Source: a virus. Taken from it: a stretch of DNA of 64,000 bases. The stretch covers positions 44,871 through 108,870 of IMG/VR virus record IMGVR_UViG_3300029812_000326, one strand, 5' to 3'. A program made the translations under genes and the position numbers. The notes beneath the pieces were generated by a model. It saw nothing but the letters and a program-made list of their open reading frames with translations. It did not search any database and was not told the origin of the DNA. Positions 1-41,250 of this stretch are shown one piece after another (the first letter of the stretch is position 1; each line of letters starts with the position of its first letter).

Positions 1-3000
1 TGAATATAATAATGAAAATAGAGAAATAGCTATACGTCTTCAAACTGCCAGTTGTCCTGAAAAATATGGGCATCCAATGAAAATTTTTGCATATCCATAT
101 AAAGGAATGTTAACTCCAATAGAAGGATTAAGATCGATTACTTGGGTTGATGCCGTTCTTCGTAAAGATCTTGCAAAACGCGGCAGAATGTCAGTCATGT
201 TAGGCCAAATTCAAAGATTGACTAGGAATTTCCAAACCATTCATTCGAAATTAACTCCATCCCAAACATTTCAATTTTTTGAAACAGTTAAAATTTTTGT
301 GAATAAAATAAATTCAATGGGTGGTATTAAATTAGATTGGCAAGTCAATAAAGGTAAACTTCAATTTATAGACGAAATAACGGGAAAAGAATGGCAAAAA
401 TTGGATCTCGGAAAAATTGAAAAAAATTGGTTACAATTTTCCGAAGGCGAATGGGTTAGATTTATGAAAGAATATTCCCAAAAAATCCGACATATGATGA
501 TTTCATTTGGGATTAAATATTCCAGACATGATCCTCGCTTGCCTTATTGGACTCAAGGTCAACTTGAATCGATGCTATCAACTGAATGGGGTAGACGATA
601 TCCTAAAAAACTAGCATTTGCTGATTTGTCCCGAGCTGAACAAAATGTATTTCGGGAAAAAATAGAAGTAGAAATGCACGAACAATTATCAAAAAGTGAA
701 TTCTCCAAATTTTTTACAAAAGCAGAATTAGAACGTTGGAAATCCGGAACTTTAATGGAAGGCCATCTTTCTTTGATTCAACTATTCGGCGGTTCTTGGG
801 GAATATTAGAAGTTACTCCGGCATCTAGAGCATATGAAGCCGGAGAATTATATGCTAAAGGTGCCGATATAAAAATCCCCAGCTTGGATGAATTAGTTGT
901 GTCCGGACCAATAGCTCAAAGAATTGCTCGCACATTCACTGGCGAACAGCGCGATATGATGAATTATATGTCAAACATCCAGCCCCTTTTGAGATATGGA
1001 ATCTTGCCTGAATCTCATTATCCAATTATAAAAGCCTCAGAAATAAATCTTGATCCTATGACAACTCATTTAGGATTTAAAGAGGAAATTGGAATCATAG
1101 AAGATAAATCTTTCAGAATTAAATGCGTTGAAACTGGGGAAATTTTTAATTCTTTGGAAGAAGTTCCAGACCGCTATTTGAAGCAATATACATTAAGACC
1201 CATGGGTATGAATGCATATATGCACCCAAAAACCTTGGAATCGATGTATGGACAACAACCAACTATAGTTGAATTCAATATAGGGAAAAAGAAGGTTTAC
1301 CTTCCCAGACCGGCATTATCATTTATCAGAGGTGCGCCCGCCAGAGTCACGAAAAGCGGAGATCCTTATACCATCATTGGAAAAGAGATTCAAACATTTA
1401 AAAATCTATTGATTGCGGCATCAGATTACGAGAAAATTAAAGGGGACGAAGCAAAAGCCGCATTTGAAAGAAAGTTCTTTTCACGGGCTGAAGACTATAA
1501 AAATATGATATTAACGGATAAAAATGCATATATAAAAATGACCAAACCAACGATTCCTGGAGTTCAAGGAAAGATTTCCATGGCATTTGCCCCCGGAATG
1601 GCTAAAGCGTTGGGATTGCCGCAAGATATGTTTAGCCATATAACTACAGGATTTGGGATACAGGGAGTATCTGTAAAGTCGATGGGCGAAGAATATTTTA
1701 ATAAAGCCATGGATGTCCATCAAATAAAGGAAGGATCGAATGTTGGAAAATATAGAGGCGCCACAGGAATGGTTTATCCGAATAAAATGGCGTTTAGGGA
1801 AGCTCTTATTGAAGGTGAAGAATTACTTGCGGGAACTATTATCAGAACCCCCGCAGAAAACCGATTCGCATTTTTTGATACATTGATCACTGTTAAAAAA
1901 GATCAAGCAGCTGGAATGCGCCTCCAACTTAGAGAAGCATTAGCAACCCACTGTGATTATGATGGGGATATAGGGCGCCTAGTATTTGCCGAGTTTTCTC
2001 CCCAGGAGCAGGAGCAAGCTTTGAAAGATCTCATAAATAAGCAACACGTTGATAGAAAAGCACATGCAACATTAGCTGAAAGGATCAAAAAGCTTCAAGC
2101 AAATGTGCTTGAATATGAAACCGGCAAAGACGTCGCAACCAAAAAACAGATTGTCAAGGAAATTGAACAAATTCAAGAACTTGAAAAAACAATGAACGTT
2201 AATGTCTATGGTCAAGGTATTTGGGTAAGGGAAGCTAAACCAAAAGCGATTCCAAAAGAAATTAAATTAGGAATTGGCGATGAAATGAGATTTCGAAAAA
2301 TGAATTTGCATCAGTTTATGAAAGAATTGCCATCTATTGATCTTCCCGAAAGATTGATCAAATTACCGGGTGAAGAATTGGAACAACATCTTTCCAATAT
2401 GCTTACGAAAACTGCTACAGCCTACTCGTATAGAAAAGCAATGACCATGAGATCAGCAACTAAGCTATTTGGTGGAAAATTAACTGAACAATATTTGGAC
2501 TTATATAATGAATTGGCCGGAAAAGTTACTGCATTCAAAAAAGTTCCATATGAAAAAGCTGAGCAAATAACTAGAGCTCTATTGGAACCAGAAGCTGCAG
2601 AATCGAAAAAAATTATGGGAGAAGTATTAAATAGGGATGCGGAAGAACTTTGGCCACAATTTAAAGAATGGCATTCTGCACTAAATCGTGCCATGATGAG
2701 AAAGGAAGTTAATGAATTAATCAGTTCTGGAATGAAACGCGCCCCTATTACGGGTGGACAGTTGGCATTATGGGGTCCAAGTGCAGAAATCCCTGCTGCA
2801 GGAAAGACTCGCGCAATTTTAGACTTTTGGGGTAAAGAAAAGTTTCTTGATAGCTTTAAACGTCAAGGGAAAAAAGGCGGCATTGCAATTGCGTTGGCCG
2901 CGCTTGTCGCTCCGATTTTCCTGTCGCACGATAATATATATGATAAAAAAGGATATCCAATAATTCCAACGAATTTCAACGTTGCTCAGCCAATATTCCC

Positions 3001-3160
3001 AGCCCCTATTCACATAATACCAAACGATCCACCATCGCATCCTATAAGAACATTTAAACCTCAGATTATTGATCCTTTGCTTATTAATTTTGGTTCTGAC
3101 AACAACTTAACAACAAGAAGGAATAGTGGCCAATATCCAAATGAATTGAGAAATTACTAG
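1..3160 (+). CDS. 5'-truncated giant protein containing a single-chain two-barrel (DPBB) RNA polymerase; probable virion RNAP
   Basis: The frame is open from base 2 (EYNNENREIAIRLQTASCPEKYGHPMK...), so ATG 77 is probably internal. Beta'-like motifs: IIRTP (1838-1852) and CDYDGD (DYDGD at 1955-1969). Beta-like motifs: KIFAYPYKG (cf. [12 protein letters not shown]) and VDAVL...RMSVMLGQ (cf. VDIVLNPLGVPSRMNIGQ). Confidence 0.75.
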   Translation, partial: EYNNENREIAIRLQTASCPEKYGHPMKIFAYPYKGMLTPIEGLRSITWVDAVLRKDLAKRGRMSVMLGQIQRLTRNFQTIHSKLTPSQTFQFFETVKIFVNKINSMGGIKLDWQVNKGKLQFIDEITGKEWQKLDLGKIEKNWLQFSEGEWVRFMKEYSQKIRHMMISFGIKYSRHDPRLPYWTQGQLESMLSTEWGRRYPKKLAFADLSRAEQNVFREKIEVEMHEQLSKSEFSKFFTKAELERWKSGTLMEGHLSLIQLFGGSWGILEVTPASRAYEAGELYAKGADIKIPSLDELVVSGPIAQRIARTFTGEQRDMMNYMSNIQPLLRYGILPESHYPIIKASEINLDPMTTHLGFKEEIGIIEDKSFRIKCVETGEIFNSLEEVPDRYLKQYTLRPMGMNAYMHPKTLESMYGQQPTIVEFNIGKKKVYLPRPALSFIRGAPARVTKSGDPYTIIGKEIQTFKNLLIAASDYEKIKGDEAKAAFERKFFSRAEDYKNMILTDKNAYIKMTKPTIPGVQGKISMAFAPGMAKALGLPQDMFSHITTGFGIQGVSVKSMGEEYFNKAMDVHQIKEGSNVGKYRGATGMVYPNKMAFREALIEGEELLAGTIIRTPAENRFAFFDTLITVKKDQAAGMRLQLREALATHCDYDGDIGRLVFAEFSPQEQEQALKDLINKQHVDRKAHATLAERIKKLQANVLEYETGKDVATKKQIVKEIEQIQELEKTMNVNVYGQGIWVREAKPKAIPKEIKLGIGDEMRFRKMNLHQFMKELPSIDLPERLIKLPGEELEQHLSNMLTKTATAYSYRKAMTMRSATKLFGGKLTEQYLDLYNELAGKVTAFKKVPYEKAEQITRALLEPEAAESKKIMGEVLNRDAEELWPQFKEWHSALNRAMMRKEVNELISSGMKRAPITGGQLALWGPSAEIPAAGKTRAILDFWGKEKFLDSFKRQGKKGGIAIALAALVAPIFLSHDNIYDKKGYPIIPTNFNVAQPIFPAPIHIIPNDPPSHPIRTFKPQIIDPLLINFGSDNNLTTRRNSGQYPNELRNY

Positions 3161-3162
3161 AA

Positions 3163-3175
3163 TTGAACTATAACA
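3163..3175 (+). promoter_or_regulatory. Copy 1 of the intergenic 13-mer TTGAACTATAACA, candidate phage promoter
   Basis: Exact copies at 3163, 17851 and 54123 (+) and 54066-54078 (-), each upstream of and co-oriented with a gene. Here TTGAGA (3146) lies 17 bp before TATAAC. Confidence 0.6.
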
Positions 3176-3431: not shown

Positions 3432-3935
3432 ATGCCATATAAAGATCCAAAAAAACGAAAAGAATATCAGTAGGAATATTTACAAAAGAATAAAGAAAAA
3501 TTAAAAATTCGCAGGCAGAAATATTATCAAGAAAATAAAGAAAAAATTAAAAAATATCTTCAAGAACATAAGGAAAGTGTTAAAAAACTTAAATTGAAAT
3601 ATATACGAAATCATCCGCATCGTGTTTGGGCAACGCATACCTTTAATGGTCATAAACACCGAAGATTTATAATTAATATTTCTATCGACGAACTTGAAGA
3701 AATTGCTAAAAATATAACTCATTGCCCTATATGTAATAGTGAATTCAAATGGAAACAAGAAAAACAATGTGATAATACACCATCTTTGGATCGGATTAAT
3801 AATGGAAATAATATTGATAAAAATTCAGTTTGGATCATATGCAGTAAATGTAATCGAACAAAATCGAATAGGACTCTTAAAGAATTTATAAATTACTGTG
3901 AATTGGTTTCGAAAAAGGACTTTAATATCGAATAA
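3432..3935 (+). pseudogene. HNH endonuclease (family B, 'PSLDRINN') interrupted by an in-frame TAG at 3471
   Basis: ATG 3432 gives MPYKDPKKRKEYQ*EYLQKNKEK..., in frame with the 3594-3935 ORF. CPIC...PSLDRINN...CSKCN motifs present. Confidence 0.75.
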
Positions 3936-3937: not shown

Positions 3938-6900
3938 ATGAAAGTATATAATCCAATAGAGTGGAATATTGGTGTGCATGGTGGCTATGATAACCCCGAT
4001 GATGCTAGAAATATAGTGCAGCCTCTTTTTGATTTATTGAATTATTTAAATCGATGGTGTCAAGACCAGGGAATGAATCATATTATTATTACTTCTGGAA
4101 GACGGGAGGCAAAGTATAATGCTAGCATTGGAGGAAGCCCAACAAGCTATCATTTGACTGGGCATGCGGCAGATATTGCCATAATCGGGCGCTATAATAG
4201 ATGGGAACAAACTATGATTTACAATTGGTTGCACACTGTATTTGCTGATCAACTTGCTCAAGTTTTATATCATGGTACTGGAGGTAATTATCATTTACAT
4301 ATAGGAATTCGGAAAGGATCTGAAGGCATGGGGCCACTTTTGGAAACTGAAAGCAAAAGTGAAGGAATTATTGAAGAAAAAAAGCCCGGAACCAATTCTT
4401 GCAACATTATGAATGATAATATTATGGGATATAATGAAACAATTGCGACTCAGATACCGCTTGATATTTATAAAACGAGCTATGAATTACTTCAGGATGT
4501 TACTGAAGAAGAAAAAATTGATCCGTTGATTGCATTAGCTCAAAAACCAGGATCATTTAAATTTGGCGCATGTTGGCTAACCGTGCCTCCAACATCAATT
4601 GCTTTTACAGAACAAAACAATATTGTTGGAATTCCAACCCTTCGTACTAAAGGCAATGTATATTGGAGAACTGGCATCAATTCAATAAACATGGACCTTG
4701 AATTTTTGTTTCCAGGATTGATTCAAATTAATGACGAATTGAGACATATAATTGCTCAAATTAAAAGATGCCCATTTTTACCTTTCGAAAATTATTATTT
4801 GCATTCATTGATATTTCCGGAATTAAAATCTGCTAAGCCTCAACCTGATATCCCATATGAATTTACCACGGAAGAAAAAACGCAACATGAAAAACAAACT
4901 GGCACTCAGGATAGACTTCAACAGCAGCAATGGCGATTGAAAAACAAAAAGATTATGGATATAGTCAAATCCGGAGATGAAAAAAGCCTGAAAGAATTTA
5001 TTGAAAAAGGTAAAAAATATGGATATTTTATTCAAGACGCGGAATCTCAAGAAGATAGACGCGAAAGAACTGAACAGCTTGAAAAGCTTTATGAATGGAT
5101 GGGAAAATATAGACATATTGATGTGGATGATACTAGTGGATTAAGCTACCGAGATCAACAAATGGTAGCGGCAATACGATCAATATCGATTACATCTGTG
5201 CCCGGATTTCCCAAAACTCTTCAAATGAATTGTTCCTGTGATATTTTTAATTATTTTCCTTATACTTCTGCGTTTAGTTTCATAGAAAATGAAACAAAAA
5301 ACGAAGTTCCGGTTTTCAATATTTCCAAAAGTGCACTGTTTGGAAAATATTATAAAGGAATGCTCACTAGAAATAATGCCCAAGAATTTAAAGATGCATT
5401 TGAATCCACAACAAAATTGGAAGCCATTGGATCTGATGAACGTATGGATTATTTGCATCTGAGATATATTTATTCTAAAGAATCGAAAAACCGAGCAATA
5501 TTAGCTCAAAGAGCTATATTGGAATATATACAAGCGATCAAAGATTTTGGAGAAAGCTATGAAGCAGCGCCAGCTGCAGAATTATATCAAAATCTTTTCA
5601 TATTTCTTACGCATCCCAATTTTGGAGGTTGGCAAAATCTATTTGATGCGCCTGGAAACGTAATAGATGCCATAAAAGAATTGGGAAAAGATGCAGTAAT
5701 CGCAGGAAAAAGTATTATTGCTGTGGTGAAATTTTATCAAGATTCTTTTGGGGAATATTTACTTGGCATAAATGCAAATAATGAAATATATGTCATAGGT
5801 AATAGGAAAGGGCGGGAATATTTCCTTCCACTTAAAGATGCAATTAAAAATCCGGAATATCGGACAAGATTATTATTTTATATTAAAGATTATTCAGTTA
5901 AAATCCGATCGTTACAATATAATCAGCGGGATTTGAAACTTGGAGATCAGAATTCTCAAATAGTTGGAATTTCAGCATCAATGGAAACAAAACTTGTGCC
6001 AATGAATATATTAGCATTTACGAAACCAACTTTCCAACATCTTGGAAATTCAGAATGGGTTGTTACATTAACGGTTGAAACATCAGATCCAAATTTAATA
6101 AGAGATTTTCGCATGATGACTGAACGGCTCAATCAAACCGCCTTATCACAAATTGCAGTGTTACCGGAAATTCGGGATTATGCGGATCTTTCTGCGCAAA
6201 TTGTTGAAGGACCATTTTTTAAACTTTTAGGAATAGAAAATATAATTCCTGGTAATTTCAGATATTCTACCGTGGAAGGAAAACCCGGCATATTCCATAT
6301 TCAAATCGATTTTGTACAATCCGATTTAGAATTGAAAACATATGAAGCACTTCAAGCTCCTGCATATTTTCCGTCTGATTTTATCAAATCATTCATTAAA
6401 TTAATCCCAGTGTTATTGCTTGAAAATATTTCTTCTAAACTTGAAGCTGATTGGAATAATTATCACATTATTCATAAATATAAAATTGGAATGCAGCTTT
6501 TGCATCAAACATTAGAAAATTATCCGAAATGGTCAAAATTTCTATTTTATTTATGTAAACCAATTCCAAAATCTTTATGTTCAGAATCAATTCCAGTCTA
6601 TAAATTTATTCTTAATGACATAAGTTCCGAATTAATTGCAAAAAAGCAACAAAAAGATTTATTTAAATGGGATTGGAAAGATATCCTTATGTACGCCGGT
6701 GCATATTTTACTGCAAGATTGGGGGCGGGACCGGGTCCAGTTGGTGATGTAAGAGCCCATTCAGGTGCGATGGCAGCAAAATTTACATTTACGAATTTAC
6801 TTAACACTACAATATTTGCGGCATATAAAGGTGCCGTTGGACGACAATTGAAAGCAACGTTGAATGAAGCCATAAATAGGGAAAATGTTCCGTCCGAATT

Positions 6901-9900
6901 AAAGATTGATTCAACAGAAAATGGACGGAAACTTCTTGAACTTATAAGAGAAAATCAAAAATATCTCCATATCAGAAATTCGACGTATCCTGATTTGGAA
7001 CTTCCAATTATCGCAGATTCTCCTGATTTTTGGTTTTTCCGAGAACCATTATATAATGATAACATTCGAGAATTTGCCGATGTAATAGTCAGTGGGCATG
7101 AAGATATAGTTCTTAAATTGGCGAAACTTAATTCTATGAATAAACAAGGAAAAGCAACTACCCAATTGGCTAAATTAGATCAAATTGCTAAAGAAGCCAA
7201 AATTAAAGAAGTTTTGGTTTCAGAAGAACTCAATAAAAATTTATTGAGCTATTTAAGAGATGCAAATGAAGATTTACAATTCAATATAGAAAGATCTAAA
7301 GATCTTAAAGAAAATGCACATCTTATGATGGAAACAAAGCGAAATAAATCTCAAGAATATTCGGGGCGCGCAGATGAATCGACATTAAGAAGCAGATTAT
7401 CAAGGATTAAACATGATATGGAATATTATAACGATTCGTTGAAAATTATAAATTTAATAGAATTAAAAAACATGGATTTCCAAACTACGGGCGATCTGTT
7501 GGATATTGCATTAGTTTTAGCAAAAAATTGGGGAATTTGTACTCCGAGGGATGCGCAACTTGAAAAACAAATGCTTCAAGATGCTATGAATCTTGATGAA
7601 AATAAAACTTTAAGATTGGGTCGGGCATTTCCAACTTTTAAATTATATTTTATAGAAAAAGATAAAGAAGAATGGTTATTGTTTGATGATTTTTATGGAT
7701 ATGGCGCAGTAAAAGAAATTCAAATAAGGAAAATTAGAAAATCTCCGATTCATACTGCGGTAGTTACATTATCAAATATCACTAATGTACTTCAGGATAT
7801 TCATGCTCCAAAGAATGAAAATATTTCTAAATCAGAAACGGCAGAAGAGCAACCAAATATTGACACTATGCTTCTTCAAGAAGGTTGTGAAATAATGATT
7901 AAGATGGGCTATGAAAATGATTCCAATAAATTGAAAGTTGTATTTCAAGGATCGATTGTAAGTATACAGCCCGGACCAGAATTGCAATTTATTGCACAAG
8001 GGTGGGGAGCAGAGCTTGGCCAGCCAATTCAAGATTTTAGTGTTGGAAAATGGAGCACAATTCGGGATTTCGGAGATATAGCGACCGCAATTTTAAATAA
8101 AGTTTCTGGATTGAGGCATTTTGGAACAACATATAATTTAGCAGAAATGTTTGATGATCTACCAAATATTCAATACAGATCTGATCGTCGAGAAACATAT
8201 GTTGGTAGATTGAAAAATTGGTCGCTTCAAGGATTGGGGCTAAATCCACTGCTTGATCATAGAGACGACAACGTTTGGTTGCCATATCATAGTCCTCCCA
8301 GCATTTGGTCGCTAGCCCATATTATAGAAGGAAAAGGATTTGCATTTGATTGGAGAGTATATAATAAAACCGCGTGGGATGCACTTGATGAGGTATTGAA
8401 ATATATGCCGGGATATATTATGAAGATTTTGCCTTATAATGAAGATAATTTGCAGTCTGCTAGATGCACATTATATATAGGCCCAAGGGATGGATATTAT
8501 ATGGCTACGGATGATTCAGAAGTTGTCAACAGGACATCGGAACATGATAAATATCAAGAAAGAAGAAATAGATGGTACATGCGCGTTAAAGGCATAAAAG
8601 CACCAACGAAACAAGAATTGATAATTAAACTTAGAAATTTTAACATAGATTATGATAGCAATACAAGTATAATTTATAAAGAATTTATAAATCAAAACAT
8701 TATTTGTCAAAATGATGAATGCAGCTTAATGAAAGCAAGTCCATTTAATCCAACAGTAGTTCAATGGAGTGGACAATTATATACCATGGAAATTCTATTT
8801 GGAGGAAACGAAATATGTCATAAAATTAATAAAGAACATTGGAAAAGACAATATTTTAATGTTTTAAATGGTTCAGGTATGACACGGGCCATCATGATAT
8901 ATGATGTTTATGACAAACTTCATTTCAAAGATTTTGAAAGAGTCTACGGTAAAGCTAGCCTCTTTGAACGAGCAACTGAAGGAGTAGAAAGATTTACTTA
9001 TGGGAAAGACGATAATCCTAAAAGGCTGGCCGGAAAACGAGGATGGAAACGAGCATGTAAAACTCATTTTATTGATAGTTATCATCACATAATTGAAAAT
9101 AATATGAAAGCTTCGCGCGAAAATATGTATAATAAGGTTCACTTAATCTATCCAAAAGGCGAACCTCAAATGGCTGCAAATGAAACGCAACTTAAAACTG
9201 GAGATTTATCTGAATTTGAAATGCTTGCAGATGACAATATAAAACCTGATATGATAAGAACGCATAAATTATTTTTTACCAATATTGACGTTGATCGAAC
9301 AAGAAATTTTATAGATTCAATTGGAAATGTTCTTAAAGGTCTTGGGCAAACGATTGGACTTAATGATCGTGGGAATTTTCCCGATATTCCACCATACGCA
9401 ATAGTAGCGAATACGATACTCGCTGAAGATTTGAAAGATATGTATGATGGAGAAATTATTATTTTGCTCGATCCAAATATTGATATTCATGATGTAGTCT
9501 ATATATACGATGATGTAAATGAAATTTATGGGCCAGTTGGAGTAAAAGAAATTTATCATTATTTCTCTATGGCACATGGAGCTTATACAGTAATTGTGCC
9601 CGATCTTATGTCATATCCCAGTAATCTAGAACAAACTGTTGAATTGGGTTATGCTTCAGCATTATATGCAGCATTAATTAAAATAGTCCTTGGTGGCATT
9701 TTAATTGGTGGAGGCGGCGCGCTTTTGGCTGGGAATTTGCTTGGACCATGGACTGGAGTAGGAGTCGCGGGATTTAGTTTGGCATTTACGTATAAACTTG
9801 CTTCTTCTATAGGTTCTGGTGGAATAAATAAACTCATGGGAAGAGAGGGTTCTGAATTCGTGCCCATATGGAGAAAGGGTGCCCCATTTCTTGCTGGAAT

Positions 9901-10072
9901 GGATGGATATAGAAAAGATGATCTTATAGTTCATTATATGGATAAAATTACTCGAATAAGTGGAACGTTTAAACAACTGAGTGCAAGCCTAATTGGATTA
10001 AGAGATAAGCCAGAAGGTACACAAATGGCATTACCAATTCTTGGATATAAAAACGAAAATTTAATTTTTTAA
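3938..10072 (+). CDS. Giant baseplate hub/tail protein with N-terminal peptidase M15 (Zn-dependent peptidoglycan peptidase) domain
   Basis: N-terminal SGxR...N...GG...SYHxxGxAAD...HxH M15A motif; 2044 aa; lies directly before spike/gp25/Baseplate-J genes; Gly-rich hydrophobic segment at the C-terminus. Confidence 0.7.
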   Translation: MKVYNPIEWNIGVHGGYDNPDDARNIVQPLFDLLNYLNRWCQDQGMNHIIITSGRREAKYNASIGGSPTSYHLTGHAADIAIIGRYNRWEQTMIYNWLHTVFADQLAQVLYHGTGGNYHLHIGIRKGSEGMGPLLETESKSEGIIEEKKPGTNSCNIMNDNIMGYNETIATQIPLDIYKTSYELLQDVTEEEKIDPLIALAQKPGSFKFGACWLTVPPTSIAFTEQNNIVGIPTLRTKGNVYWRTGINSINMDLEFLFPGLIQINDELRHIIAQIKRCPFLPFENYYLHSLIFPELKSAKPQPDIPYEFTTEEKTQHEKQTGTQDRLQQQQWRLKNKKIMDIVKSGDEKSLKEFIEKGKKYGYFIQDAESQEDRRERTEQLEKLYEWMGKYRHIDVDDTSGLSYRDQQMVAAIRSISITSVPGFPKTLQMNCSCDIFNYFPYTSAFSFIENETKNEVPVFNISKSALFGKYYKGMLTRNNAQEFKDAFESTTKLEAIGSDERMDYLHLRYIYSKESKNRAILAQRAILEYIQAIKDFGESYEAAPAAELYQNLFIFLTHPNFGGWQNLFDAPGNVIDAIKELGKDAVIAGKSIIAVVKFYQDSFGEYLLGINANNEIYVIGNRKGREYFLPLKDAIKNPEYRTRLLFYIKDYSVKIRSLQYNQRDLKLGDQNSQIVGISASMETKLVPMNILAFTKPTFQHLGNSEWVVTLTVETSDPNLIRDFRMMTERLNQTALSQIAVLPEIRDYADLSAQIVEGPFFKLLGIENIIPGNFRYSTVEGKPGIFHIQIDFVQSDLELKTYEALQAPAYFPSDFIKSFIKLIPVLLLENISSKLEADWNNYHIIHKYKIGMQLLHQTLENYPKWSKFLFYLCKPIPKSLCSESIPVYKFILNDISSELIAKKQQKDLFKWDWKDILMYAGAYFTARLGAGPGPVGDVRAHSGAMAAKFTFTNLLNTTIFAAYKGAVGRQLKATLNEAINRENVPSELKIDSTENGRKLLELIRENQKYLHIRNSTYPDLELPIIADSPDFWFFREPLYNDNIREFADVIVSGHEDIVLKLAKLNSMNKQGKATTQLAKLDQIAKEAKIKEVLVSEELNKNLLSYLRDANEDLQFNIERSKDLKENAHLMMETKRNKSQEYSGRADESTLRSRLSRIKHDMEYYNDSLKIINLIELKNMDFQTTGDLLDIALVLAKNWGICTPRDAQLEKQMLQDAMNLDENKTLRLGRAFPTFKLYFIEKDKEEWLLFDDFYGYGAVKEIQIRKIRKSPIHTAVVTLSNITNVLQDIHAPKNENISKSETAEEQPNIDTMLLQEGCEIMIKMGYENDSNKLKVVFQGSIVSIQPGPELQFIAQGWGAELGQPIQDFSVGKWSTIRDFGDIATAILNKVSGLRHFGTTYNLAEMFDDLPNIQYRSDRRETYVGRLKNWSLQGLGLNPLLDHRDDNVWLPYHSPPSIWSLAHIIEGKGFAFDWRVYNKTAWDALDEVLKYMPGYIMKILPYNEDNLQSARCTLYIGPRDGYYMATDDSEVVNRTSEHDKYQERRNRWYMRVKGIKAPTKQELIIKLRNFNIDYDSNTSIIYKEFINQNIICQNDECSLMKASPFNPTVVQWSGQLYTMEILFGGNEICHKINKEHWKRQYFNVLNGSGMTRAIMIYDVYDKLHFKDFERVYGKASLFERATEGVERFTYGKDDNPKRLAGKRGWKRACKTHFIDSYHHIIENNMKASRENMYNKVHLIYPKGEPQMAANETQLKTGDLSEFEMLADDNIKPDMIRTHKLFFTNIDVDRTRNFIDSIGNVLKGLGQTIGLNDRGNFPDIPPYAIVANTILAEDLKDMYDGEIIILLDPNIDIHDVVYIYDDVNEIYGPVGVKEIYHYFSMAHGAYTVIVPDLMSYPSNLEQTVELGYASALYAALIKIVLGGILIGGGGALLAGNLLGPWTGVGVAGFSLAFTYKLASSIGSGGINKLMGREGSEFVPIWRKGAPFLAGMDGYRKDDLIVHYMDKITRISGTFKQLSASLIGLRDKPEGTQMALPILGYKNENLIF

Positions 10073-29877: not shown

Positions 29878-32408
29878 GTATAAGCAAAGAACAAATCTTA
29901 GCATTTACGAATGCAACTATAAAATATTTTATTTTTGACAAGGGTGTAATGCCCAGTCCATGGAAAATATTTAGTTATCTTGATAATTATTTAAAAGAAA
30001 ATGATATCATATTGGGTTTTCCAATTTTCAAAGCCTATCATCAGCCAGAAAATGGGCAATCGAATTTGAAAGAATATAATAGAAATATTAAAGATTTAAC
30101 TTTTGATTTGACAATATTTTATAATGAGCTTATAAATCAAGGCGCAAGGATTCTAGATTTTTTCAGCTCATCAGAAATACAATATAGATCATTATTACAA
30201 AATTTGAAAAAATTAGTATTTGATTTTGAAAATTTGTTAAATTACGAATCGGCTAATTATGTTGTAGGAGACAATTTTTCTGATTATTCTAAAGTTGATT
30301 TGCGTAATACTACCGCAAAAATTGATACGGCGGCGGGAAAAATTGTTATTGGTGATGGACAGTCAAACAAATTAGATTTGTCATTTTATCAGGATATATC
30401 TGAACCACCAAATTTGGAAATTTTAGTGCCTTATATTTCGAGAACTAAATTACCAGAAAATGCATTTTCAAATATTTTGATATCTACGAATAACATTTGG
30501 ACTGAAATATTGTTAACGGAAAGTCCTAAAGGCTGCTCATTGCGATTTGAATTGCCGCTGACAAAGACGGGGAAAAATGTTGAAATAAATCGAATTTATA
30601 TTAGTTTGATGTCTCCCAAAATAACCAACGTAAACGTTGAATATTTACGAGATGGGAATTGGAAACAAATTTTTGATGAAAATATTGATGATATAGATGT
30701 TATATCATTCCGACCAATAATGACAAATAAGTTGCGCTTTATTTTGTCAAAAATTGAACCGGATTCGAATTATGGGAGCAAATATTTTTATCATTTCGGA
30801 ATTAAACAAATTGAACTTTATAAATTCAATGCCGGACAAATGGCTCAATTTAGGTCAAAGCCATTAAATATAGATGCTAACGAACAAGAGGATATAGGAA
30901 TAGGAGAAATAACGTTAGAAGCCGATGAAAATATTCCAGAAGATACCTCAATCGAATATTATATTGCAGAAAATCCTTATTTAACGGGATCATTTGTTCT
31001 TGATTCAGATCATGATGTTATTGTTGATGATCAATATGGAGAAGATTCAGTATTTATTGTCGGCAACACTGGCTTTACTCGTTGGTGGGAAATTGCTGAT
31101 TCTGGAATTTCTATTTTATCGGGAGAATTACCTAGCGGGGAATTTAGATGGATACAAATTGAACCTATAAATCGTTCAGGAGCAACGAAAACAGCAATTA
31201 ATTTTGATTATTTAACAGAAGCAAATAATAATGAATTCTCCGATGGTTATATATTGAAAATTGATAATTTTGCAGAAACTTTCAGTATTGGGGATCTTAA
31301 ATTATATAAAATTTATGAATGGTTTGATCCCATTGATGCGGGAAAGCAAGTTGTCCCATTGAAAATAAAAGTATATGCGGGAAAAAATTGTTGGCTATTC
31401 GAAGAAAAATTTTATGAACATACACAATATTTTGAAACAAATGGAATTTTGGAAGATGGGGAATGTGTAATGAATGGCTCATATAAAAAACGCATTCTTC
31501 ATAATTCAATAATATCTGTAAGATCCGCGGGTTCACTGGAAAAATATGAACCAATTGAAGATTATGTTGTCATATACGGCACACCAGAATTTGGCGCAAC
31601 AATTAGATCCAATGTTGGTAATATGATAGCGGAAGCAGATGAAACTCTACCAATAACATATATTTATGGTGTTAATTTCTTAACTTCGAGATATATATAC
31701 AAATGCTATATTAATTTGCCAAAAAATGTTTATGAAAATGTGCAAGAATCGAATGCGGAAATCCCTAAAATTAAATTTATTTGGTGGAATACTGATATTG
31801 GAAAAATTAAAACAATTTCAATAACAAATTTCGATGATGATATGGTTGAATTAAGTAAGCATGTTGAATATGAATATGAACATAATATGAGTCGAACAAT
31901 TCAACTTATTGATATAGGAAGAGGATTTGGAACATTTGAGATAGAAATTGAATTCGATATTCCCGAAGATATACTTAACGCTGAAAGTGATATTGCACGT
32001 AAAATATTAGATGAATTTAATCCGATTTCGCGTGTAATATTGCCCCAATATCTTGAACCAAGTGCGTGGAATGAGCCCTTATATCAAATTGGTAGTGATA
32101 CCTTAAAATATATGACACATAAATATGATCATACGAAGTTTGCACTTTATCAGGAATCAAATGGAAGATACGTATTACTCACAAATAATATGGGACAATT
32201 TTTAGGCAGCACGAGATTGGTTTTTAAAAATGAAATTTTGGATTCGCAGACTGGATTCTTAGGTATAGACCCTTCAGAATTTTTTGATATTTCATTTAAA
32301 GTAGTAAATAAAATATGTGATTCACTATTATTTAGAGCAGTTTTAAAAAGTCAAATTGATACAACACCTGAAATTCGTTCATATAAATTGATAATCAAAA
32401 ATGAATAA
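29874..32408 (+). CDS. Large baseplate/tail protein (paralog family ending TPxIxxY)
   Basis: SNLKEYNRNIKDLTFDL N-terminal motif; C-terminal TTPEIRSYKL; local cluster DSGISILSGELPSGEF. Confidence 0.55.
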   Translation: MSISKEQILAFTNATIKYFIFDKGVMPSPWKIFSYLDNYLKENDIILGFPIFKAYHQPENGQSNLKEYNRNIKDLTFDLTIFYNELINQGARILDFFSSSEIQYRSLLQNLKKLVFDFENLLNYESANYVVGDNFSDYSKVDLRNTTAKIDTAAGKIVIGDGQSNKLDLSFYQDISEPPNLEILVPYISRTKLPENAFSNILISTNNIWTEILLTESPKGCSLRFELPLTKTGKNVEINRIYISLMSPKITNVNVEYLRDGNWKQIFDENIDDIDVISFRPIMTNKLRFILSKIEPDSNYGSKYFYHFGIKQIELYKFNAGQMAQFRSKPLNIDANEQEDIGIGEITLEADENIPEDTSIEYYIAENPYLTGSFVLDSDHDVIVDDQYGEDSVFIVGNTGFTRWWEIADSGISILSGELPSGEFRWIQIEPINRSGATKTAINFDYLTEANNNEFSDGYILKIDNFAETFSIGDLKLYKIYEWFDPIDAGKQVVPLKIKVYAGKNCWLFEEKFYEHTQYFETNGILEDGECVMNGSYKKRILHNSIISVRSAGSLEKYEPIEDYVVIYGTPEFGATIRSNVGNMIAEADETLPITYIYGVNFLTSRYIYKCYINLPKNVYENVQESNAEIPKIKFIWWNTDIGKIKTISITNFDDDMVELSKHVEYEYEHNMSRTIQLIDIGRGFGTFEIEIEFDIPEDILNAESDIARKILDEFNPISRVILPQYLEPSAWNEPLYQIGSDTLKYMTHKYDHTKFALYQESNGRYVLLTNNMGQFLGSTRLVFKNEILDSQTGFLGIDPSEFFDISFKVVNKICDSLLFRAVLKSQIDTTPEIRSYKLIIKNE

Positions 32409-32411
32409 ATT

Positions 32412-32687
32412 ATGATCAACAAATTTCGATATAGCAGAAGAATTTTTCGTTCGAATTATCCACTGTCTTCAAGAACGTGGGGAGCAATATTAGAAGAAAT
32501 ACAATCAATTTTTTGTCAATATTTCGGAAATACGATAAATAAAGAAAAAATTGCAACTGGAATTGTTGGCGAATTAATTGATGAATTATCAACGTTCTAT
32601 ACTGAGACATGGGGGAATTCTGACGAAACAAATGCGAATTTTATGAATTTATTGACAAATATAAAACATTCATTGTCGAAGAAATAA
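32412..32687 (+). CDS. Small structural protein
   Basis: FRSNYPLSSRTWGAILEEI resembles FRGPLSSELLNRAFEEI of the next gene. Confidence 0.5.
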   Translation: MINKFRYSRRIFRSNYPLSSRTWGAILEEIQSIFCQYFGNTINKEKIATGIVGELIDELSTFYTETWGNSDETNANFMNLLTNIKHSLSKK

Positions 32688-32703
32688 ACGTTGGAGGTGA
32701 GAA

Positions 32704-33834
32704 ATGAATTTGACCCGGTGGCATCAAGCATTTCGCGGACCATTATCTAGCGAACTGCTAAATCGCGCATTTGAAGAAATTTATGAGGAATTAGGCAAAG
32801 CAATCGAATATGTACAGCATCTATCGGAAAATAAGCAAACATTAACTGATGCCCTATCATATCAATTGAATGCAATTGCTGGGATTTACGGAGCAGAAAA
32901 TACAGCTGTAGGCAATATGAATACTACTCGAGGAATTCTGCATAGGAATATGTACATTGATACAGGAATAACTAATGCCGCGGGCACGGTTCAAGCTACG
33001 ATAAATGCGATGTATGGCATTGCGCATTTGCCGATTGGTCGCAAATTATCGATGGTTCCACAAGAAAAAAATGTTTATGGGGAAAGCGTTGCTGATTCCC
33101 TAATTAAAATTTATTTGGATGATGATTTGCAACCATCGGATGCAAATATCTACGAAATGTTACATAGAAAAGTGAACGCAATATGGTTTGGAAAAAATGT
33201 TGGCGCTGCGCTTAAAGTTATAAGAATAAATTTTCCGAAAGCGCCTAATACTAAATTGAATTATATTGAATTTCAACCGGCGCCGATACTCAATGAAACT
33301 ATTGATAATATTCAAATAAGAAATTATAATAATTTATATCAATCGCCATATGACGGATGTCCCGCGGTAAATAATAATACTATGCTGTGTTTCGAAAATA
33401 ATTCATTTAATGATTCTATTCAATTTGAATTGATGCCATGGAATATCGATGGTGGAATTTGTGGGATGAAATATTTTGATTGTGGTTATGCAGATTATAT
33501 TGGGGCGGCCAATATTAGATTTATTATGTCAACTGCGGCACCTGGAACGATTAATACAATTACTCATATTTTTCATGAACCAAACAATTTGAATTTTGTC
33601 CATCCTGGACCCAATTATTTAGGATTTTTAGATAATCCACCTGTAAAAATTAGTCTTCGGAAAAATAGCCATGCGGGAACTTTATTATGGGATAACGTTA
33701 ATTATGCTTATCCGCAAGATAGCGGCATTCCCATAACTGCGGGGGGAATTACAGATATTTATATCGAAATTGAATTTATAAAGATGAATGACAGTACACC
33801 GATCTTCCAAAATATTACAATTTATTATGATTAA
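32704..33834 (+). CDS. Baseplate/tail protein (paralog family)
   Basis: GGAGGTG RBS; FRGPLSS N-terminus; C-terminal STPIFQNITI. Confidence 0.55.
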   Translation: MNLTRWHQAFRGPLSSELLNRAFEEIYEELGKAIEYVQHLSENKQTLTDALSYQLNAIAGIYGAENTAVGNMNTTRGILHRNMYIDTGITNAAGTVQATINAMYGIAHLPIGRKLSMVPQEKNVYGESVADSLIKIYLDDDLQPSDANIYEMLHRKVNAIWFGKNVGAALKVIRINFPKAPNTKLNYIEFQPAPILNETIDNIQIRNYNNLYQSPYDGCPAVNNNTMLCFENNSFNDSIQFELMPWNIDGGICGMKYFDCGYADYIGAANIRFIMSTAAPGTINTITHIFHEPNNLNFVHPGPNYLGFLDNPPVKISLRKNSHAGTLLWDNVNYAYPQDSGIPITAGGITDIYIEIEFIKMNDSTPIFQNITIYYD

Positions 33835-33849
33835 GAGGTTATAAATAAA

Positions 33850-34812
33850 ATGGGACAAATATTTGCCGATACTGATAAATTTACTGCTGGCGAAATACCT
33901 AAAGTTACTAAATTCCAGCGCATTGTTAATTATTTGAATCGTCATATAATGCATCGGAAAAATAAAATAAAAAGTCCGGGCAATTATGAACATTGGTCAG
34001 AATGTCTTAAATATGATGATGGCAATAGTGGCATATCTGTTTATGACAAATTAAAACAGCAACTTAATCCAAATGTTGATGATAGAAAATGTGCAACAGT
34101 ATGTTTATCAAGGAATCCTGATATTAATGCAAGCTCAATATTATATAGGACTTCTTATAATTTTACGTGCAATGGGTCCCGAGATGAGGAAGAATTCCAA
34201 AAAGCATGGACGCTAATTAGCCAACGGGGACTAGGAAAAATATTTTTTAGAAAAGGCATATATGAATTTGAAAAGACTTCTTATTTGCAATTTCCCGCGC
34301 ATGAACAAGAAAATAAGCCATTTTGTATAGTAATTGAAGGAGAACAGGGTGCACAATTGCATCATAAAATTCCATTTACAGCAGAAGATAATGCCATGTT
34401 TGTTCTTCAAACGGAAAATGGATATGTATATCAACCAACATTAATATTTAAAAATTTAGTATTTTTAGGCGGATTAAATACTTCGAGATTTATGAAACTA
34501 AATGAAAATGCAACTTTGCCTTACACTATTATATTTGATCGTTGTGCATTTTGGATTCGAGATGAATCAATGGAACGGGATTGGTCATCATTAGATTTAT
34601 CTGGAAATAATAAAATTGGACATATTTATTTTAATGAATGTTATTTTCGCAGAATATATTTATCTAAAACTTATCCATCTGGATTTGTGGGACATTTGGG
34701 ACATATAATTAAAGCTGATAAGTTGGCATTGATTAAAACTGAAAATTGCATATTTGAAGATCGAGGAAATCGGCACGATTGGGATAAATTCAAATATGTG
34801 CATCCGGTATAA
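33850..34812 (+). CDS. Tailspike-like beta-helix protein 1 with shared 'YEHW' N-terminal module
   Basis: LNRHIMHRK...PGNYEHW; GKIFFRKGIY...IEGE beta-helix start; repeated (I/F)xNCxF. Confidence 0.6.
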   Translation: MGQIFADTDKFTAGEIPKVTKFQRIVNYLNRHIMHRKNKIKSPGNYEHWSECLKYDDGNSGISVYDKLKQQLNPNVDDRKCATVCLSRNPDINASSILYRTSYNFTCNGSRDEEEFQKAWTLISQRGLGKIFFRKGIYEFEKTSYLQFPAHEQENKPFCIVIEGEQGAQLHHKIPFTAEDNAMFVLQTENGYVYQPTLIFKNLVFLGGLNTSRFMKLNENATLPYTIIFDRCAFWIRDESMERDWSSLDLSGNNKIGHIYFNECYFRRIYLSKTYPSGFVGHLGHIIKADKLALIKTENCIFEDRGNRHDWDKFKYVHPV

Positions 34813-34815
34813 AAT

Positions 34816-35418
34816 ATGATAGCAAAATGTATTTGTGAAGACGGAAGAATAATTGTATGTCCATTTGGTTATTTTCCGGGTAGCATAATACCAAATGAAG
34901 TTTGTGATTTTTGGGAAGGACACGATCCTGATGATCCAGTCGGAGGAGATCCTGGAGATCAAGATTTAAGTTTGCCCGCAATTCATATTACAGATTGTGG
35001 TCAAACATCAATAAAATTTTGTGATTTCCAAGGACAAAATTGTATTATAGCAGTTAAATCAACTTCTGCACAACCCCAAAATCTTATATTTCATGGAAAT
35101 AAAATTTTATTATTTGGATATAATATGTTGGATTCAGTTTATTTTAATTCGATATTTTATACGTATAATGTAAAAGGTTCATTGACCGATAATATATTTA
35201 TTGGATTGTTGACGGAAACTCCAGGTGGTGGAATTATTTATGCAACAAGATTTGCTGGAACGTTTAAACCAGAGCCGCTATTTAATATATTGACATTCCC
35301 GCAAGTGGGTGCCCAAAATTATAGTCAAACCCCCGCATATTGGTTTTGGGGATGCGATCCTCGGGGTGCTAATCTTTGGTTTGGAAGGCATTTTGCAAAT
35401 ATCTATGAGGTGGAATAA
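34816..35418 (+). CDS. Hypothetical tail-associated protein
   Basis: Lies among tailspike-like genes; Cys-rich N-terminus and Asp/Pro/Gly linker. Confidence 0.45.
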   Translation: MIAKCICEDGRIIVCPFGYFPGSIIPNEVCDFWEGHDPDDPVGGDPGDQDLSLPAIHITDCGQTSIKFCDFQGQNCIIAVKSTSAQPQNLIFHGNKILLFGYNMLDSVYFNSIFYTYNVKGSLTDNIFIGLLTETPGGGIIYATRFAGTFKPEPLFNILTFPQVGAQNYSQTPAYWFWGCDPRGANLWFGRHFANIYEVE

Positions 35419-36644
35419 TGAAATTTGAAACCCAATTGTGGAAACGTTGGGAATTTCCTTCATATGAAAAATTAAATTCCTTGATAGAAGGCATAAATAA
35501 ACATATTAAACACAGAAAAACGCTGACTGGAATTTTCGAATATACCGATCCTGATGGCAATTATGAACATTGGGCATCAGTGGTTCGTTGTCTTGCATTT
35601 CCTGATGTTCAATGGGCATTAGATAATGAGCCTTCAGGAACATTTGATACTTATAATTCGGCAATTATAGTTGCTCCTGAATCTAGAAGAGCATATGTAT
35701 CCGCTGATTATTATGTTGATAATCCGTCTGCAGATTTGCCGGCAATTCTGGATGCAGCGGCCGGAGCAACTGTATTTTTCCTTGCTGGTGATTATCTTTT
35801 TACAACGGATTTTACGATAAATAATCCGGCGACTCTAATTGGTGAATCTTCTGCTACTACGAGGTTCATATTTTCAAATGGAATGCGATTACTATATTCT
35901 GGCAATGCGGATTCTGCTGCAGCACCAGTAAGATTTAAAAATTTATTATTTCAAGGTAGCTATGAGGAATTCATTGCAGGGATTGGTATGACATTTGATA
36001 AATGTATTTTTTATTATCAAAGTGCTTCGCATGAGATTGCGGCTGTTACGGGTTTAATAGAAACATCCGCTGGAGATTATCCAGGAGAATTACGAATTGA
36101 TAATTGTCAATTTATAATTCATGGACCAGGAATGGCATTTGGTTCTAGCGATGCTATAATTTATGAAAATCTTATTGCAATAAAGCATGATTATGGCAAA
36201 TTATATGTTGTAGATTCTGTAATTGACTATTATTTTGGTCCATCAGTATATTTTCAATATGGAATTTATGCTACAAAATATTTGAAAATTTCTAATTCAA
36301 GAATTGTAACATATGATGAGACTATATTTTTTGATGGTGCAACCGAAAATTTAATAATTAAAAATTGCGAATTAGGCAGAAAGCGATTTGAAGATTCGTC
36401 AGGAGTTGTTCTTATTAGCGATGCTATCCATACTTGTGTAACTCGGACTAAAATACAATATACTACTGGTCCTGCATCAGCAACAAAATTTGCAATTTAT
36501 CAATTGGGCACATTTAATGGATTTATTGGTATGAATGTATTTAATACCAATATTGATGTCAATGGTAATACGATTTCTAATTATAATGGATTTAATTCCA
36601 TTGTAGAAAAAGATTTGGTATTTAACTTTTTACAGTATCCATAA
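35418..36644 (+). CDS. Tailspike-like beta-helix protein 2 with 'YEHW' module
   Basis: INKHIKHRK...PDGNYEHWAS; GATVFFLAGDY...LIGES; DKCIF, DNCQF and KNCEL repeats. Confidence 0.65.
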   Translation: MKFETQLWKRWEFPSYEKLNSLIEGINKHIKHRKTLTGIFEYTDPDGNYEHWASVVRCLAFPDVQWALDNEPSGTFDTYNSAIIVAPESRRAYVSADYYVDNPSADLPAILDAAAGATVFFLAGDYLFTTDFTINNPATLIGESSATTRFIFSNGMRLLYSGNADSAAAPVRFKNLLFQGSYEEFIAGIGMTFDKCIFYYQSASHEIAAVTGLIETSAGDYPGELRIDNCQFIIHGPGMAFGSSDAIIYENLIAIKHDYGKLYVVDSVIDYYFGPSVYFQYGIYATKYLKISNSRIVTYDETIFFDGATENLIIKNCELGRKRFEDSSGVVLISDAIHTCVTRTKIQYTTGPASATKFAIYQLGTFNGFIGMNVFNTNIDVNGNTISNYNGFNSIVEKDLVFNFLQYP

Positions 36645-36653
36645 GGAGTATTT

Positions 36654-37979
36654 GTGGGTGAATTATTTCTTAAATTTGGACGTTTTAAAAAGCTTGCTGC
36701 GAAAATCCTTAATAAATTGACGCACAAGTTGAACGACCATACTAATGCGTGTGGACACATCCCATCATATCCCGGCGATCAATATGAGCATTGGGCTTCT
36801 GCATTTAAATTTGATGATATTTCATTAGAAGAAGCACTTAATAATAGAGAAACAAGTGCCATATTAGATTCTAAATGCGGATCTCTCATAATAGCACAAT
36901 CTGCTGATCGGGCAGATCAAGGATTTGTGGCTGATGTTGATCATTTCCAAGATACTTTACATTCTGCTATTGATGCTGTCCATGATTTTGACGGAGCATC
37001 TATTCTTGTTTTAAGTGGAACATATTATTTTGATGATTCATTTAGATGCCATGCAGATGTTGAAATTATTGGGGAATCAAAAGATTGTGTAAAATTTGTT
37101 ACTAATTTTTCCGATAATGAAATTCTCCATCTTTCAAAAGGAACATTTAGAAATATAACATTTATTTCTGAAACAGGTAAATATTTTATTGGTGGAGTAG
37201 TAAGCGTTGGGGCATCTGATTATTATTATACTGAAAGTAGTTATCCGGTAGATTTGATATTTGATAATTGTAATTTTGAATTTAGATCTGATGATCTTAG
37301 TTCTACGTTGCAATTTGATTTTAATCGCTCTGTTCCATATACATATTGTCGCGTAGTTTTTAATGAATGTGATTTTATAAATTATAGAACTGCTTCTCCA
37401 CCTGTTTTGCGGGCCGTGATATGTGTTCAATTGCTGCATTGTTTAAATGCACCGCCCAAATTTATATTTAACAAGTGCAATTTTTATTACGGCGATGAAG
37501 CAACTGCCAATTATGAACGTTGGTTATATATGTATTCAGAATTTCGTCCCTCAACCGGGCATGGGGAAAATACTTCGGAAGAGCAAGTTACTAAAGCAAC
37601 ATTTTATCGATGTAATATCTATAATAGTCCTTCTGCTGCTGTAATAAACTATCATAATCCAATTTGTGGTAGCAATTTTGGTTTGGAAATGTATCATTGT
37701 AATCTTGAAACTAAAACTCCCCATGCCATATATGCAACGCTTGGTGGGTTAATATTCATGCGATTATTTTTCAATAATTTTACCACTACAGGATTATGTT
37801 TCTATCAATATGATAATGAAAATTATGACTATAATTTGAATACTTTAGCATTTATATATAATATAACAGATCAATTGTTTCCAACCACCATCAATAATAA
37901 TTTGATACTTTACTGGAATACAAATATTGTGAGAACTGGTAATACAAATCCTTTGTATCAAGGAGATGTGGTATTCTGA
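36654..37979 (+). CDS. Tailspike-like beta-helix protein 3 with 'YEHW' module
   Basis: LNDHTN...PGDQYEHWAS; GASILVLSGTY...IIGES; FDNCNF, FNECDF and FNKCNF repeats. Confidence 0.65.
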   Translation: MGELFLKFGRFKKLAAKILNKLTHKLNDHTNACGHIPSYPGDQYEHWASAFKFDDISLEEALNNRETSAILDSKCGSLIIAQSADRADQGFVADVDHFQDTLHSAIDAVHDFDGASILVLSGTYYFDDSFRCHADVEIIGESKDCVKFVTNFSDNEILHLSKGTFRNITFISETGKYFIGGVVSVGASDYYYTESSYPVDLIFDNCNFEFRSDDLSSTLQFDFNRSVPYTYCRVVFNECDFINYRTASPPVLRAVICVQLLHCLNAPPKFIFNKCNFYYGDEATANYERWLYMYSEFRPSTGHGENTSEEQVTKATFYRCNIYNSPSAAVINYHNPICGSNFGLEMYHCNLETKTPHAIYATLGGLIFMRLFFNNFTTTGLCFYQYDNENYDYNLNTLAFIYNITDQLFPTTINNNLILYWNTNIVRTGNTNPLYQGDVVF

Positions 37980-38010
37980 TAAATAAGTGGTTTCAAAATA
38001 AGGAGTTAAT

Positions 38011-38406: not shown

Positions 38407-38409
38407 TAT

Positions 38410-38796: not shown

Positions 38797-38816
38797 TTTA
38801 TTTCAAAGAAGATATT

Positions 38817-40127: not shown

Positions 40128-40149
40128 TCCATAATGGAGGAAATATTGA

Positions 40150-41249: not shown

Positions 41250-41250
41250 T

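Follow-up and report, generated by a model that had tools for sequence, protein, structure and literature searches.

Experiments have demonstrated virion-delivered two-barrel RNA polymerases in crAss-like podoviruses and one Thermus siphovirus family, and also in jumbo myoviruses, where the enzymes are multisubunit. In Thermus phage P23-45, the virion RNA polymerase gp96 is joined to the tape measure protein and has a paralog, gp64 (PMC10770324). Until its structure had been determined, gp96 showed no significant similarity to polymerases: it came to notice as a virion protein that has a conserved DFDGD and otherwise no recognizable similarity, and was then shown to be a polymerase (PMC10770324). 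The 2,015-residue protein described here, from an uncultured phage, shares with gp96 and gp64 a D-[FY]-DGD loop preceded by an R-x-P motif (38 residues upstream in those proteins, 37 here) and shares with gp96 its nature as a giant tail-module protein. As in that pair, no other similarity to RNA polymerases can be detected.

The window (the whole stretch of DNA that was analyzed, 64,000 nucleotides) opens within the gene for this protein. The frame noted as open from base 2 does run to a stop codon at 3160, and the 5′ part that was to be recovered is supplied by the parent record, where the complete gene (G000, 41983-48030) encodes 2,015 aa with no internal stops and starts at record position 41983 (L005), 2,887 bases ahead of the window. 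A sequence-only reading had described the polymerase as embedded in a giant tail-module protein. Instead, the candidate polymerase has a gene to itself, with a giant gene on either side; in every lineage it is set off at both ends by stop codons, which is not the organization of a polymerase/tape-measure fusion of the P23-45 gp96 type. The gene order is sheath ... 3,615-aa gene (with four inteins), 2,015-aa gene, M15-peptidase giant gene, sheath initiator and baseplate J. Two giant genes flank the family gene in three lineages, and the relatives L010 and L011 keep the same order of tail genes around it; a conserved place in the tail module is what is looked for in packaged, ejected phage proteins. 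The sheath, sheath-initiator and baseplate J genes bear out the contractile tail that had been proposed, and the proposed phage-encoded sigma factor is present as a sigma-70 region 2 gene on the minus strand at window positions 57177-57374. The phage also carries its own family B DNA polymerase. In L010, a GIY-YIG/NUMOD3 homing endonuclease occupies the place of the small zinc-ribbon/HNH-like gene. The hydrophobic segment near the C-terminus of the 2,015-aa protein is possibly a membrane anchor. Coordinates are collected in Table 1.

Table 1. Features of the 2,015-aa gene and its surroundings, in window coordinates.
Feature	Residues	Position	Strand	Basis or remark
C-terminal 1,052 codons of the 2,015-aa gene	964-2015	1..3160	+	frame and parent record
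Beta-like Lys block of the sequence-only reading (IAIRLQ...YKG), second-barrel candidate 1	972-998	26..106	+	K990 and K997 invariant; G998 conserved
VDAVL...MLGQ block	1012-1032	146..208	+	D1013, K1022, R1023 and R1025 invariant
SRAYEAGELYAKGADIKIPSLDELVV, candidate 2 for the beta-like K-G block	1238-1263	824..901	+	conservation and block scan
EELLAGTIIRTPAEN, second most conserved 15-mer of the protein	1569-1583	1817..1861	+	R1578-x-P1580-x-E1582 invariant (7/7)
H-C-D-Y-D-G-D, candidate Mg-binding catalytic loop	1613-1619	1949..1969	+	invariant residues
TKTATAYSYRKAMTMR, T-K-T-A..Y..R segment	1765-1780	2405..2452	+	T1765, K1766, Y1773 and R1780 invariant
C-terminal hydrophobic segment	1921-1942	2873..2938	+	hydrophobic in all homologs
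TGAACTATAAC, candidate phage promoter, one of seven copies		3164..3174	+	four bases past the stop codon of the 2,015-aa gene
113-aa zinc-ribbon/HNH-like gene		3594..3935	+	separates the 2,015-aa gene from the third giant gene
Third giant gene, 2,044 aa, N-terminal M15 cell-wall peptidase		3938..10072	+	adjoins the 2,015-aa gene in distant relatives too

The family of the 2,015-aa protein is small and divergent. It comprises seven sequences from four lineages, with identity down to 26% (26-30% between lineages), and only 15% of the alignment columns are invariant across the seven members. Across 1.84 billion representatives, a full HMMER scan gave four clusters in total, scans of IMG/VR, JGI metagenomes and GTDB gave only five loci in total, and a profile word search recovered only three close relatives. 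No relative was found by tblastn against 50,697 phage records, a literature search returned no paper describing the family, and its motif strings are absent from the supplement of PMC10770324.

Within this alignment, H1613, D1615, D1617, G1618 and D1619 are invariant in 7/7 sequences, giving the pattern H-x-D-x-DGD; the metal loop of a two-barrel RNA polymerase is expected to read D-x-D-x-D, usually D-[FY]-DGD. The R-x-P strand of such enzymes is expected ~35-40 residues ahead of the loop, and the R-to-D distance here is 37 residues, as compared with 38, 38 and 39 in the proven phage two-barrel enzymes P23-45 gp64, gp96 and phi14:2 gp66, and 35 in E. coli beta-prime. The sequence-only reading had staked its polymerase on the conservation of DYDGD and RTP in homologs. 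It withstands this challenge: every homolog, down to 26% identity, keeps DYDGD and R-x-P unchanged, with both the R and the P of RTP retained. The expected number of DxDGD matches by chance is 0.5 in 35,284 residues and the proteome contains one, which is no more than chance, so only the conservation of the motif is informative. Of all local matches between the protein and a four-sequence gp64-family profile, the best is at the candidate catalytic loop, with a non-significant P of 0.04-0.11 (hhalign). The residues flanking R-x-P are unlike those of any reference polymerase, and the beta-prime NADFDGD block fits the DYDGD site less well than it fits 594-617, at the exonuclease Exo II; motif matches of such strength therefore arise by chance. 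Several other loop types were compared with H-x-D-x-DGD by eye and rejected: an EF-hand/dockerin-type calcium loop (no Gly at position 6 and no acidic residue at position 12), a DHH phosphoesterase (DHH and GGGH motifs absent), a calcineurin-type phosphoesterase (the signature does not fit) and a Pol-beta nucleotidyltransferase (no G-[GS]).

For the second barrel, two or three sites are equally plausible and the beta-like assignment is ambiguous. The sequence-only reading had correctly located the peptides IAIRLQ...YKG and VDAVL...MLGQ, the Lys codons at 80-82 and 101-103 and the DYDGD at 1955-1969. The resemblance it saw between residues 972-1032 and E. coli beta did not hold up, as an objective scan puts the beta Lys block best at 1238-1263, and 1012-1032 falls outside the top five matches to the VDIVLNP block of E. 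coli beta. The 15-mer with the highest conservation in the protein lies within the 1238-1263 site and includes a K-G-x3-K-I-P-x-L-D block. The site is the top ungapped match to the E. coli beta Lys block (z 3.6, margin 5.3 against 5.2; non-significant), and the best hhalign match to P23-45 gp96, also non-significant, falls there. This site is a candidate for the beta-like K-G block or else for the first half of a beta-prime-like barrel. When the K..KG block of the crAss family is used instead, the site at 986-1011 ranks 2nd of about 2,000 positions, again non-significantly. Farther downstream, the segment at 1765-1780 is possibly bridge-helix-like as judged by eye only, and the E. coli bridge-helix block gave no match there.

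No significant similarity was found between the 2,015-aa protein and any known two-barrel RNA polymerase. Searches of Pfam, including PF00623, PF00562 and PF05183, gave no significant match to the polymerase part of the protein, and PHROGs, PDB sequence and PDB profile searches gave nothing for this part. All hhalign comparisons with a 67-sequence crAss polymerase core (probability < 1%), a 70-sequence beta-prime block and the gp64-family profile were non-significant, as were hhalign and BLASTP comparisons with gp66, gp96, gp64, RpoB and RpoC. The PDB profile search missed the exonuclease domain as well, and the PDB negatives therefore weigh little for this family. AlphaFold2 models of residues 930-1745 (pLDDT 36.9) and 1475-1725 (48.9), with the loop surroundings under 50, are unusable because the family is too small (about four lineages). 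Long helices are predicted after the loop in these same models. Foldseek searches of the PDB with the low-pLDDT models gave nothing at E ≤ 0.001, the Foldseek and VIA matches are meaningless, and the ESM Atlas gave no usable match. A complex prediction for residues 955-1310 versus 1380-1745 scored 0.26, where the mark is 0.32. Taken as a whole, the analysis cannot tell whether the polymerase interpretation is correct; the support for a polymerase comes from the motifs.

The DEDDh exonuclease domain, at about residues 500-720, is better supported than the polymerase. The Exo I residues D507-x-E509 and the Exo III residues H713-x4-D718 are invariant, and the Exo II residue D609 is Glu in two lineages. 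PF16473 (Rv2179c-like) matches 4/5 members, the best at 7.5e-6 and 26.2 bits, just missing the cut-off of 27, and phrog_192 ('DNA polymerase exonuclease subunit') matches 4/4 members. The Exo I, II and III residues and the His, together with an HMM match, are what is required of a DEDDh 3′-5′ exonuclease. The protein has these Exo residues in common with known members of that group, and differs from them in that the domain is set within a giant tail-module protein. The exonuclease lies in one chain with the candidate polymerase core in all lineages, and this fusion indicates that the 2,015-aa protein acts on nucleic acids.

The explanation that we consider best, and to which we assign about an even chance, is that the 2,015-aa protein is a virion-delivered, very diverged single-chain two-barrel RNA polymerase with an exonuclease. 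The analysis shows the exonuclease domain, the conserved motifs and the gene with its synteny, and we infer the polymerase fold, the packaging, the ejection and all of the activities in the following scheme. The protein would be carried in the tail and enter the host by ejection, and would comprise its DEDDh 3′-5′ exonuclease domain, a two-barrel RNA polymerase core within about residues 960-1900, and presumptive hydrophobic segments at both ends. In the core, the catalytic Mg2+ would be held by D1615, D1617 and D1619, in an active site lined by the R1578-x-P strand and a conserved Lys-Gly block (986-998 or 1249-1250). Once the tail has contracted, the protein would exit through the tube with its two giant neighbors, one of which has a cell-wall peptidase. 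The ejected polymerase would not need the host enzyme to transcribe the first phage genes; for later genes, the phage's own sigma factor would act with the host core polymerase.

None of the profile and fold tests for a polymerase returned anything. This counts towards a different reading, which we think rather unlikely: an ejected multi-domain protein in which the DEDDh exonuclease is the only shown nucleic-acid enzyme and the H-x-D-x-DGD loop belongs to another metal-dependent catalytic domain (nucleotidyltransferase, phosphoesterase or nuclease). Acidic D-x-D loops are found in many enzyme folds, and the third giant protein of L010 contains a staphylococcal nuclease domain, which makes nucleases part of the giant-gene module. 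However, Pfam and PHROGs detected no alternative metal-enzyme family either, the loop fits no EF-hand, DHH, calcineurin-type or Pol-beta-type signature by eye, and the invariant R-x-P at a polymerase-typical distance and the conserved K-G block would be left unexplained.

The gene also lies where tape-measure genes lie, and the hydrophobic end segments, the long predicted helices past the loop and the very low overall conservation would suit a tail-lumen or ejectosome protein with a mainly structural role, either tape-measure-like or channel-forming, with DxDGD as a structural metal site and the exonuclease as a passenger. We judge this improbable, since the two best-conserved blocks and the loop resemble catalytic signatures and not coiled-coil or repeat structure, and the retention of the exonuclease catalytic residues by every lineage argues for enzymatic cargo. 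The presence of the DEDDh domain and the candidate polymerase core in a single chain could alternatively mean that the two cooperate, either in a proofreading or 3′-end-trimming RNA polymerase or in a PolD-like DNA-synthesising enzyme. This seems very improbable, because the phage already encodes a family B DNA polymerase and we know of no two-barrel RNA polymerase with a fused DnaQ-type exonuclease.

If the virion-delivered polymerase is real, a single-chain enzyme of this kind in an ordinary-sized contractile-tailed phage would widen the known range, and would be an exonuclease-fused polymerase without a detectable sequence relative. It would suggest that injection of a phage's own polymerase is common and goes unnoticed in giant tail proteins called 'hypothetical', and would represent a very deep new branch of the superfamily that includes the cellular RNA polymerases and the eukaryotic RNA-silencing polymerases. 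There is a slim chance that we see here, for the first time, a DnaQ-type exonuclease built into a two-barrel RNA polymerase, with the enzyme delivered by a contractile tail as one of three ejected proteins of about 2,000 residues and the exonuclease trimming or proofreading the 3′ end or clearing host nucleic acid where the genome is first transcribed. If the protein is not a polymerase, the conserved loop would mark some other kind of catalytic cargo, carried by a conserved ejection module of three proteins.

Among described systems, P23-45 also resembles this phage in its membrane-type segments and in having a cell-wall peptidase within the module, and the gp64 loop, D-Y-D-G-D-I-G, is identical to that of the 2,015-aa protein. 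The two systems differ in that the P23-45 tail is long and non-contractile, whereas the tail here is contractile, and in that the gp96 polymerase forms the N-terminus of the tape measure, whereas here it would be a separate gene. The DEDDh exonuclease is found in the 2,015-aa protein, and there is no significant sequence relation between the two systems. No second, non-virion paralog is seen here in the 108-kb partial record. The podovirus phi14:2 differs in that gp66 has a DFDID loop and lacks an exonuclease. The gp66 protein (PDB 6VR4; bioRxiv 10.1101/2020.03.07.982082) is nevertheless a 2,180-aa virion protein encoded beside other giant structural genes, and has the same order of a Lys-Gly block, a connector and then R-x-P with an acidic loop. 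Its K-x2-A-x-P-x-K-G string resembles residues 990-998 of the 2,015-aa protein, and the barrel spacing of about 350 residues in gp66 compares with about 620 here, or about 370 if the alternative site is used.

A complete gene at record 41983-48030 encodes a 2,015-residue protein without an internal stop; its ATG lies two bases past the stop of the upstream gene, and its final 1,052 codons make up the frame open from window base 2. Every peptide quoted in the sequence-only reading was found where that reading had placed it. The parent virus record is 108,870 bp long, carries a provirus flag and has an estimated completeness of 53%; it also codes for a primase-helicase. Genes for the large terminase, portal, protease, major head protein and a 905-aa tail sheath lie 5' of three giant genes, arranged as 3,615 aa, 2,015 aa, a small 113-aa gene and 2,044 aa. 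The third giant gene is followed by a sheath-initiator-like gene and then by baseplate J. Because of these surrounding head, sheath, giant and baseplate genes, the 2,015-aa gene occupies the place of the tape-measure or tail-lumen protein of a contractile-tailed phage. Near the tail-fibre genes, window 45880-48219 (-) and 38817-40127 (+) encode a 779-aa double GT4-type glycosyltransferase and a collagen-repeat protein. The first giant protein, L006, matches Pfam in five LAGLIDADG_3 stretches together with Intein_splicing and Hint, and its translation shows Cys...His-Asn junctions; for a virion structural gene to harbour several complete inteins equipped with LAGLIDADG endonuclease domains is unusual.

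Features of the virus record and their coordinates
Feature	Location	Strand	Remark
First giant gene (L006), 3,615 aa	record 31133-41980, just upstream of window		several LAGLIDADG inteins
113-aa zinc-ribbon/HNH-like gene	window 3594-3935	+	between second and third giant genes
Third giant gene, 2,044 aa			N-terminal M15 cell-wall peptidase
Sigma-70-type factor gene, 341 aa	window 56757-57782	-	Sigma70_r2, 45 bits, above cut-off
Family B DNA polymerase gene	window 57949-61146	-	interrupted by intein with LAGLIDADG/Hom_end endonuclease
11-mer TGAACTATAAC	window 3164, 17852, 54124 (+); 54067-54077 (-); record 1038, 12962, 28202		

The family is very small. Scanning 1.84 billion cluster representatives with HMMER yielded four clusters, word-index searches gave three close relatives, and five loci in total came from IMG/VR and JGI metagenome scans; neither GTDB genomes nor 50,697 phage records contained a match. 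The seven full-length sequences, none bearing an annotated name, represent about four lineages; members of the window's group are 84-90% identical, and identity drops to 26-30% between that group and the other lineages. The two distant loci share the neighbourhood of the window's gene, consisting of a large upstream gene, the homolog, the M15-peptidase giant gene and baseplate J. At the distant locus L010, a homing endonuclease gene (GIY-YIG plus NUMOD3, 8344-9027) lies between the last two giant genes, so that this spacer holds differing homing-endonuclease-type genes there and in the window. The third giant protein of L010 (9266-15727) also has a staphylococcal nuclease domain (PF00565, 8e-15); the window's copy lacks it.

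The N-terminal half of the protein carries a DEDDh exonuclease signature (D507-x-E509, F608 followed by D or E, and H713-x4-D718). PF16473, an Rv2179c-like 3'-5' exoribonuclease, matches four of five members (best 7.5e-6, 26.2 bits vs a cut-off of 27), and PHROG 192 matches four of four. No significant polymerase similarity was obtained with Pfam (where PF00623, PF00562 and PF05183 were also searched directly), PHROGs, PDB sequence and profile searches or BLASTP. Comparisons by hhalign with gp96 and gp64 of Thermus phage P23-45, gp66 of crAss-like phage phi14:2, RpoB, RpoC, a 70-sequence beta-prime block and a 67-sequence crAss polymerase core alignment built in the present analysis were likewise non-significant. 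A PDB profile search missed the exonuclease domain too, so for a family this diverged the failure of a search counts for little. AlphaFold2 models of residues 930-1745 and 1475-1725 were unusable (pLDDT 36.9 and 48.9, and below 50 around residues 1613-1619), and fold searches with them returned nothing meaningful.

Roughly 15% of alignment columns do not vary among the four lineages. They include H1613, D1615, D1617, G1618 and D1619 of the H-x-D-x-DGD loop and I1577, R1578, P1580 and E1582 around R-x-P (1578-1580), so that the DYDGD and RTP identified as beta-prime-like in the sequence-only reading are indeed conserved in homologs. The region proposed as beta-like retains K990, K997, D1013, K1022, R1023 and R1025. 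Further invariant residues are R1239, A1240, E1242, E1245, K1249, G1250, K1254, I1255, P1256, L1258, D1259, L1261 and V1262. The top-conserved 15-mer is 1248-1262 and the runner-up is the R-x-P block, 1569-1583; a hydrophobic segment, 1921-1942, is retained in every lineage.

Support for a putative two-barrel RNA polymerase is at the motif level throughout. R-x-P precedes the first Asp by 37 residues, compared with 38 in gp64 and gp96, 39 in gp66 and 35 in E.coli beta-prime, all proven polymerases, and the string DYDGDIG is identical to that of gp64. A four-sequence gp64 profile finds its best local alignment to the whole 2,015-residue profile at the loop, with a P of only 0.04-0.11. A single DxDGD in the phage proteome is at chance level (0.5 expected), and in profile scans the R-x-P flanks resemble no reference. 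The beta-prime NADFDGD block matches better at the Exo II site of the exonuclease (AAWSASFDVD, 594-617) than at DYDGD, which shows that such matches arise easily. P23-45 gp96 itself came to light in a DxDxD search of virion proteins; until its activity and structure were demonstrated, no further similarity could be detected in it (PMC10770324).

The crAss K..KG block ranks second at 986-1011, the beta-like Lys site proposed earlier. The E.coli beta Lys block matches best at 1238-1263 in an ungapped profile scan (z 3.6, a tiny margin); neither match is significant. The accompanying second beta comparison (VDIVLNP...) was not reproduced in such a scan. A second barrel could lie at 986-1011, ∼620 residues ahead of the loop, or alternatively at 1238-1263, ∼370 residues ahead and near the ∼350 of gp66. 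The block at 1238-1263 may, on the other hand, form the first half of the beta-prime-like barrel.

We consider the chances about even that the protein is a single-chain two-barrel RNA polymerase, delivered by the virion and fused to an exonuclease, because the loop is invariant and R-x-P lies at a fitting distance from it, the best-conserved blocks are those resembling polymerase signatures, and both the tail-module position and the P23-45 precedent count in its favour. The conserved loop may instead belong to a different metal-dependent catalytic domain, which is unlikely but carries real weight. An ejection protein with a mainly structural role is improbable. We would be surprised to find a polymerase coupled to its own exonuclease, or one that synthesises DNA.

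Judging from the Sigma70_r2 match, the phage has a sigma factor of its own. The seven copies of TGAACTATAAC in the record are mostly intergenic, four of them in spacers of at least 60 bases, and each is oriented with the genes that follow it, as holds for both directions in the divergent spacer at window 54026-54223. The element is a promoter candidate that the phage sigma factor might recognise. If the protein is an RNA polymerase, the ejected enzyme would plausibly transcribe the first phage genes, and host core polymerase carrying the phage-encoded sigma factor would afterwards read later genes, perhaps from TGAACTATAAC.

The nearest working analogues are P23-45 gp96 and gp64 and crAss gp66. 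The protein cannot be filed in either family, because what it has in common with them is motifs: no profile comparison reached significance, and the low-confidence models gave no usable fold. If the polymerase reading is correct, what would be new is a contractile-tailed phage as host of such an enzyme, a built-in DEDDh exonuclease, a lineage without detectable sequence relatives and, in contrast to P23-45 gp96, a gene of its own instead of a fusion to the tape measure.
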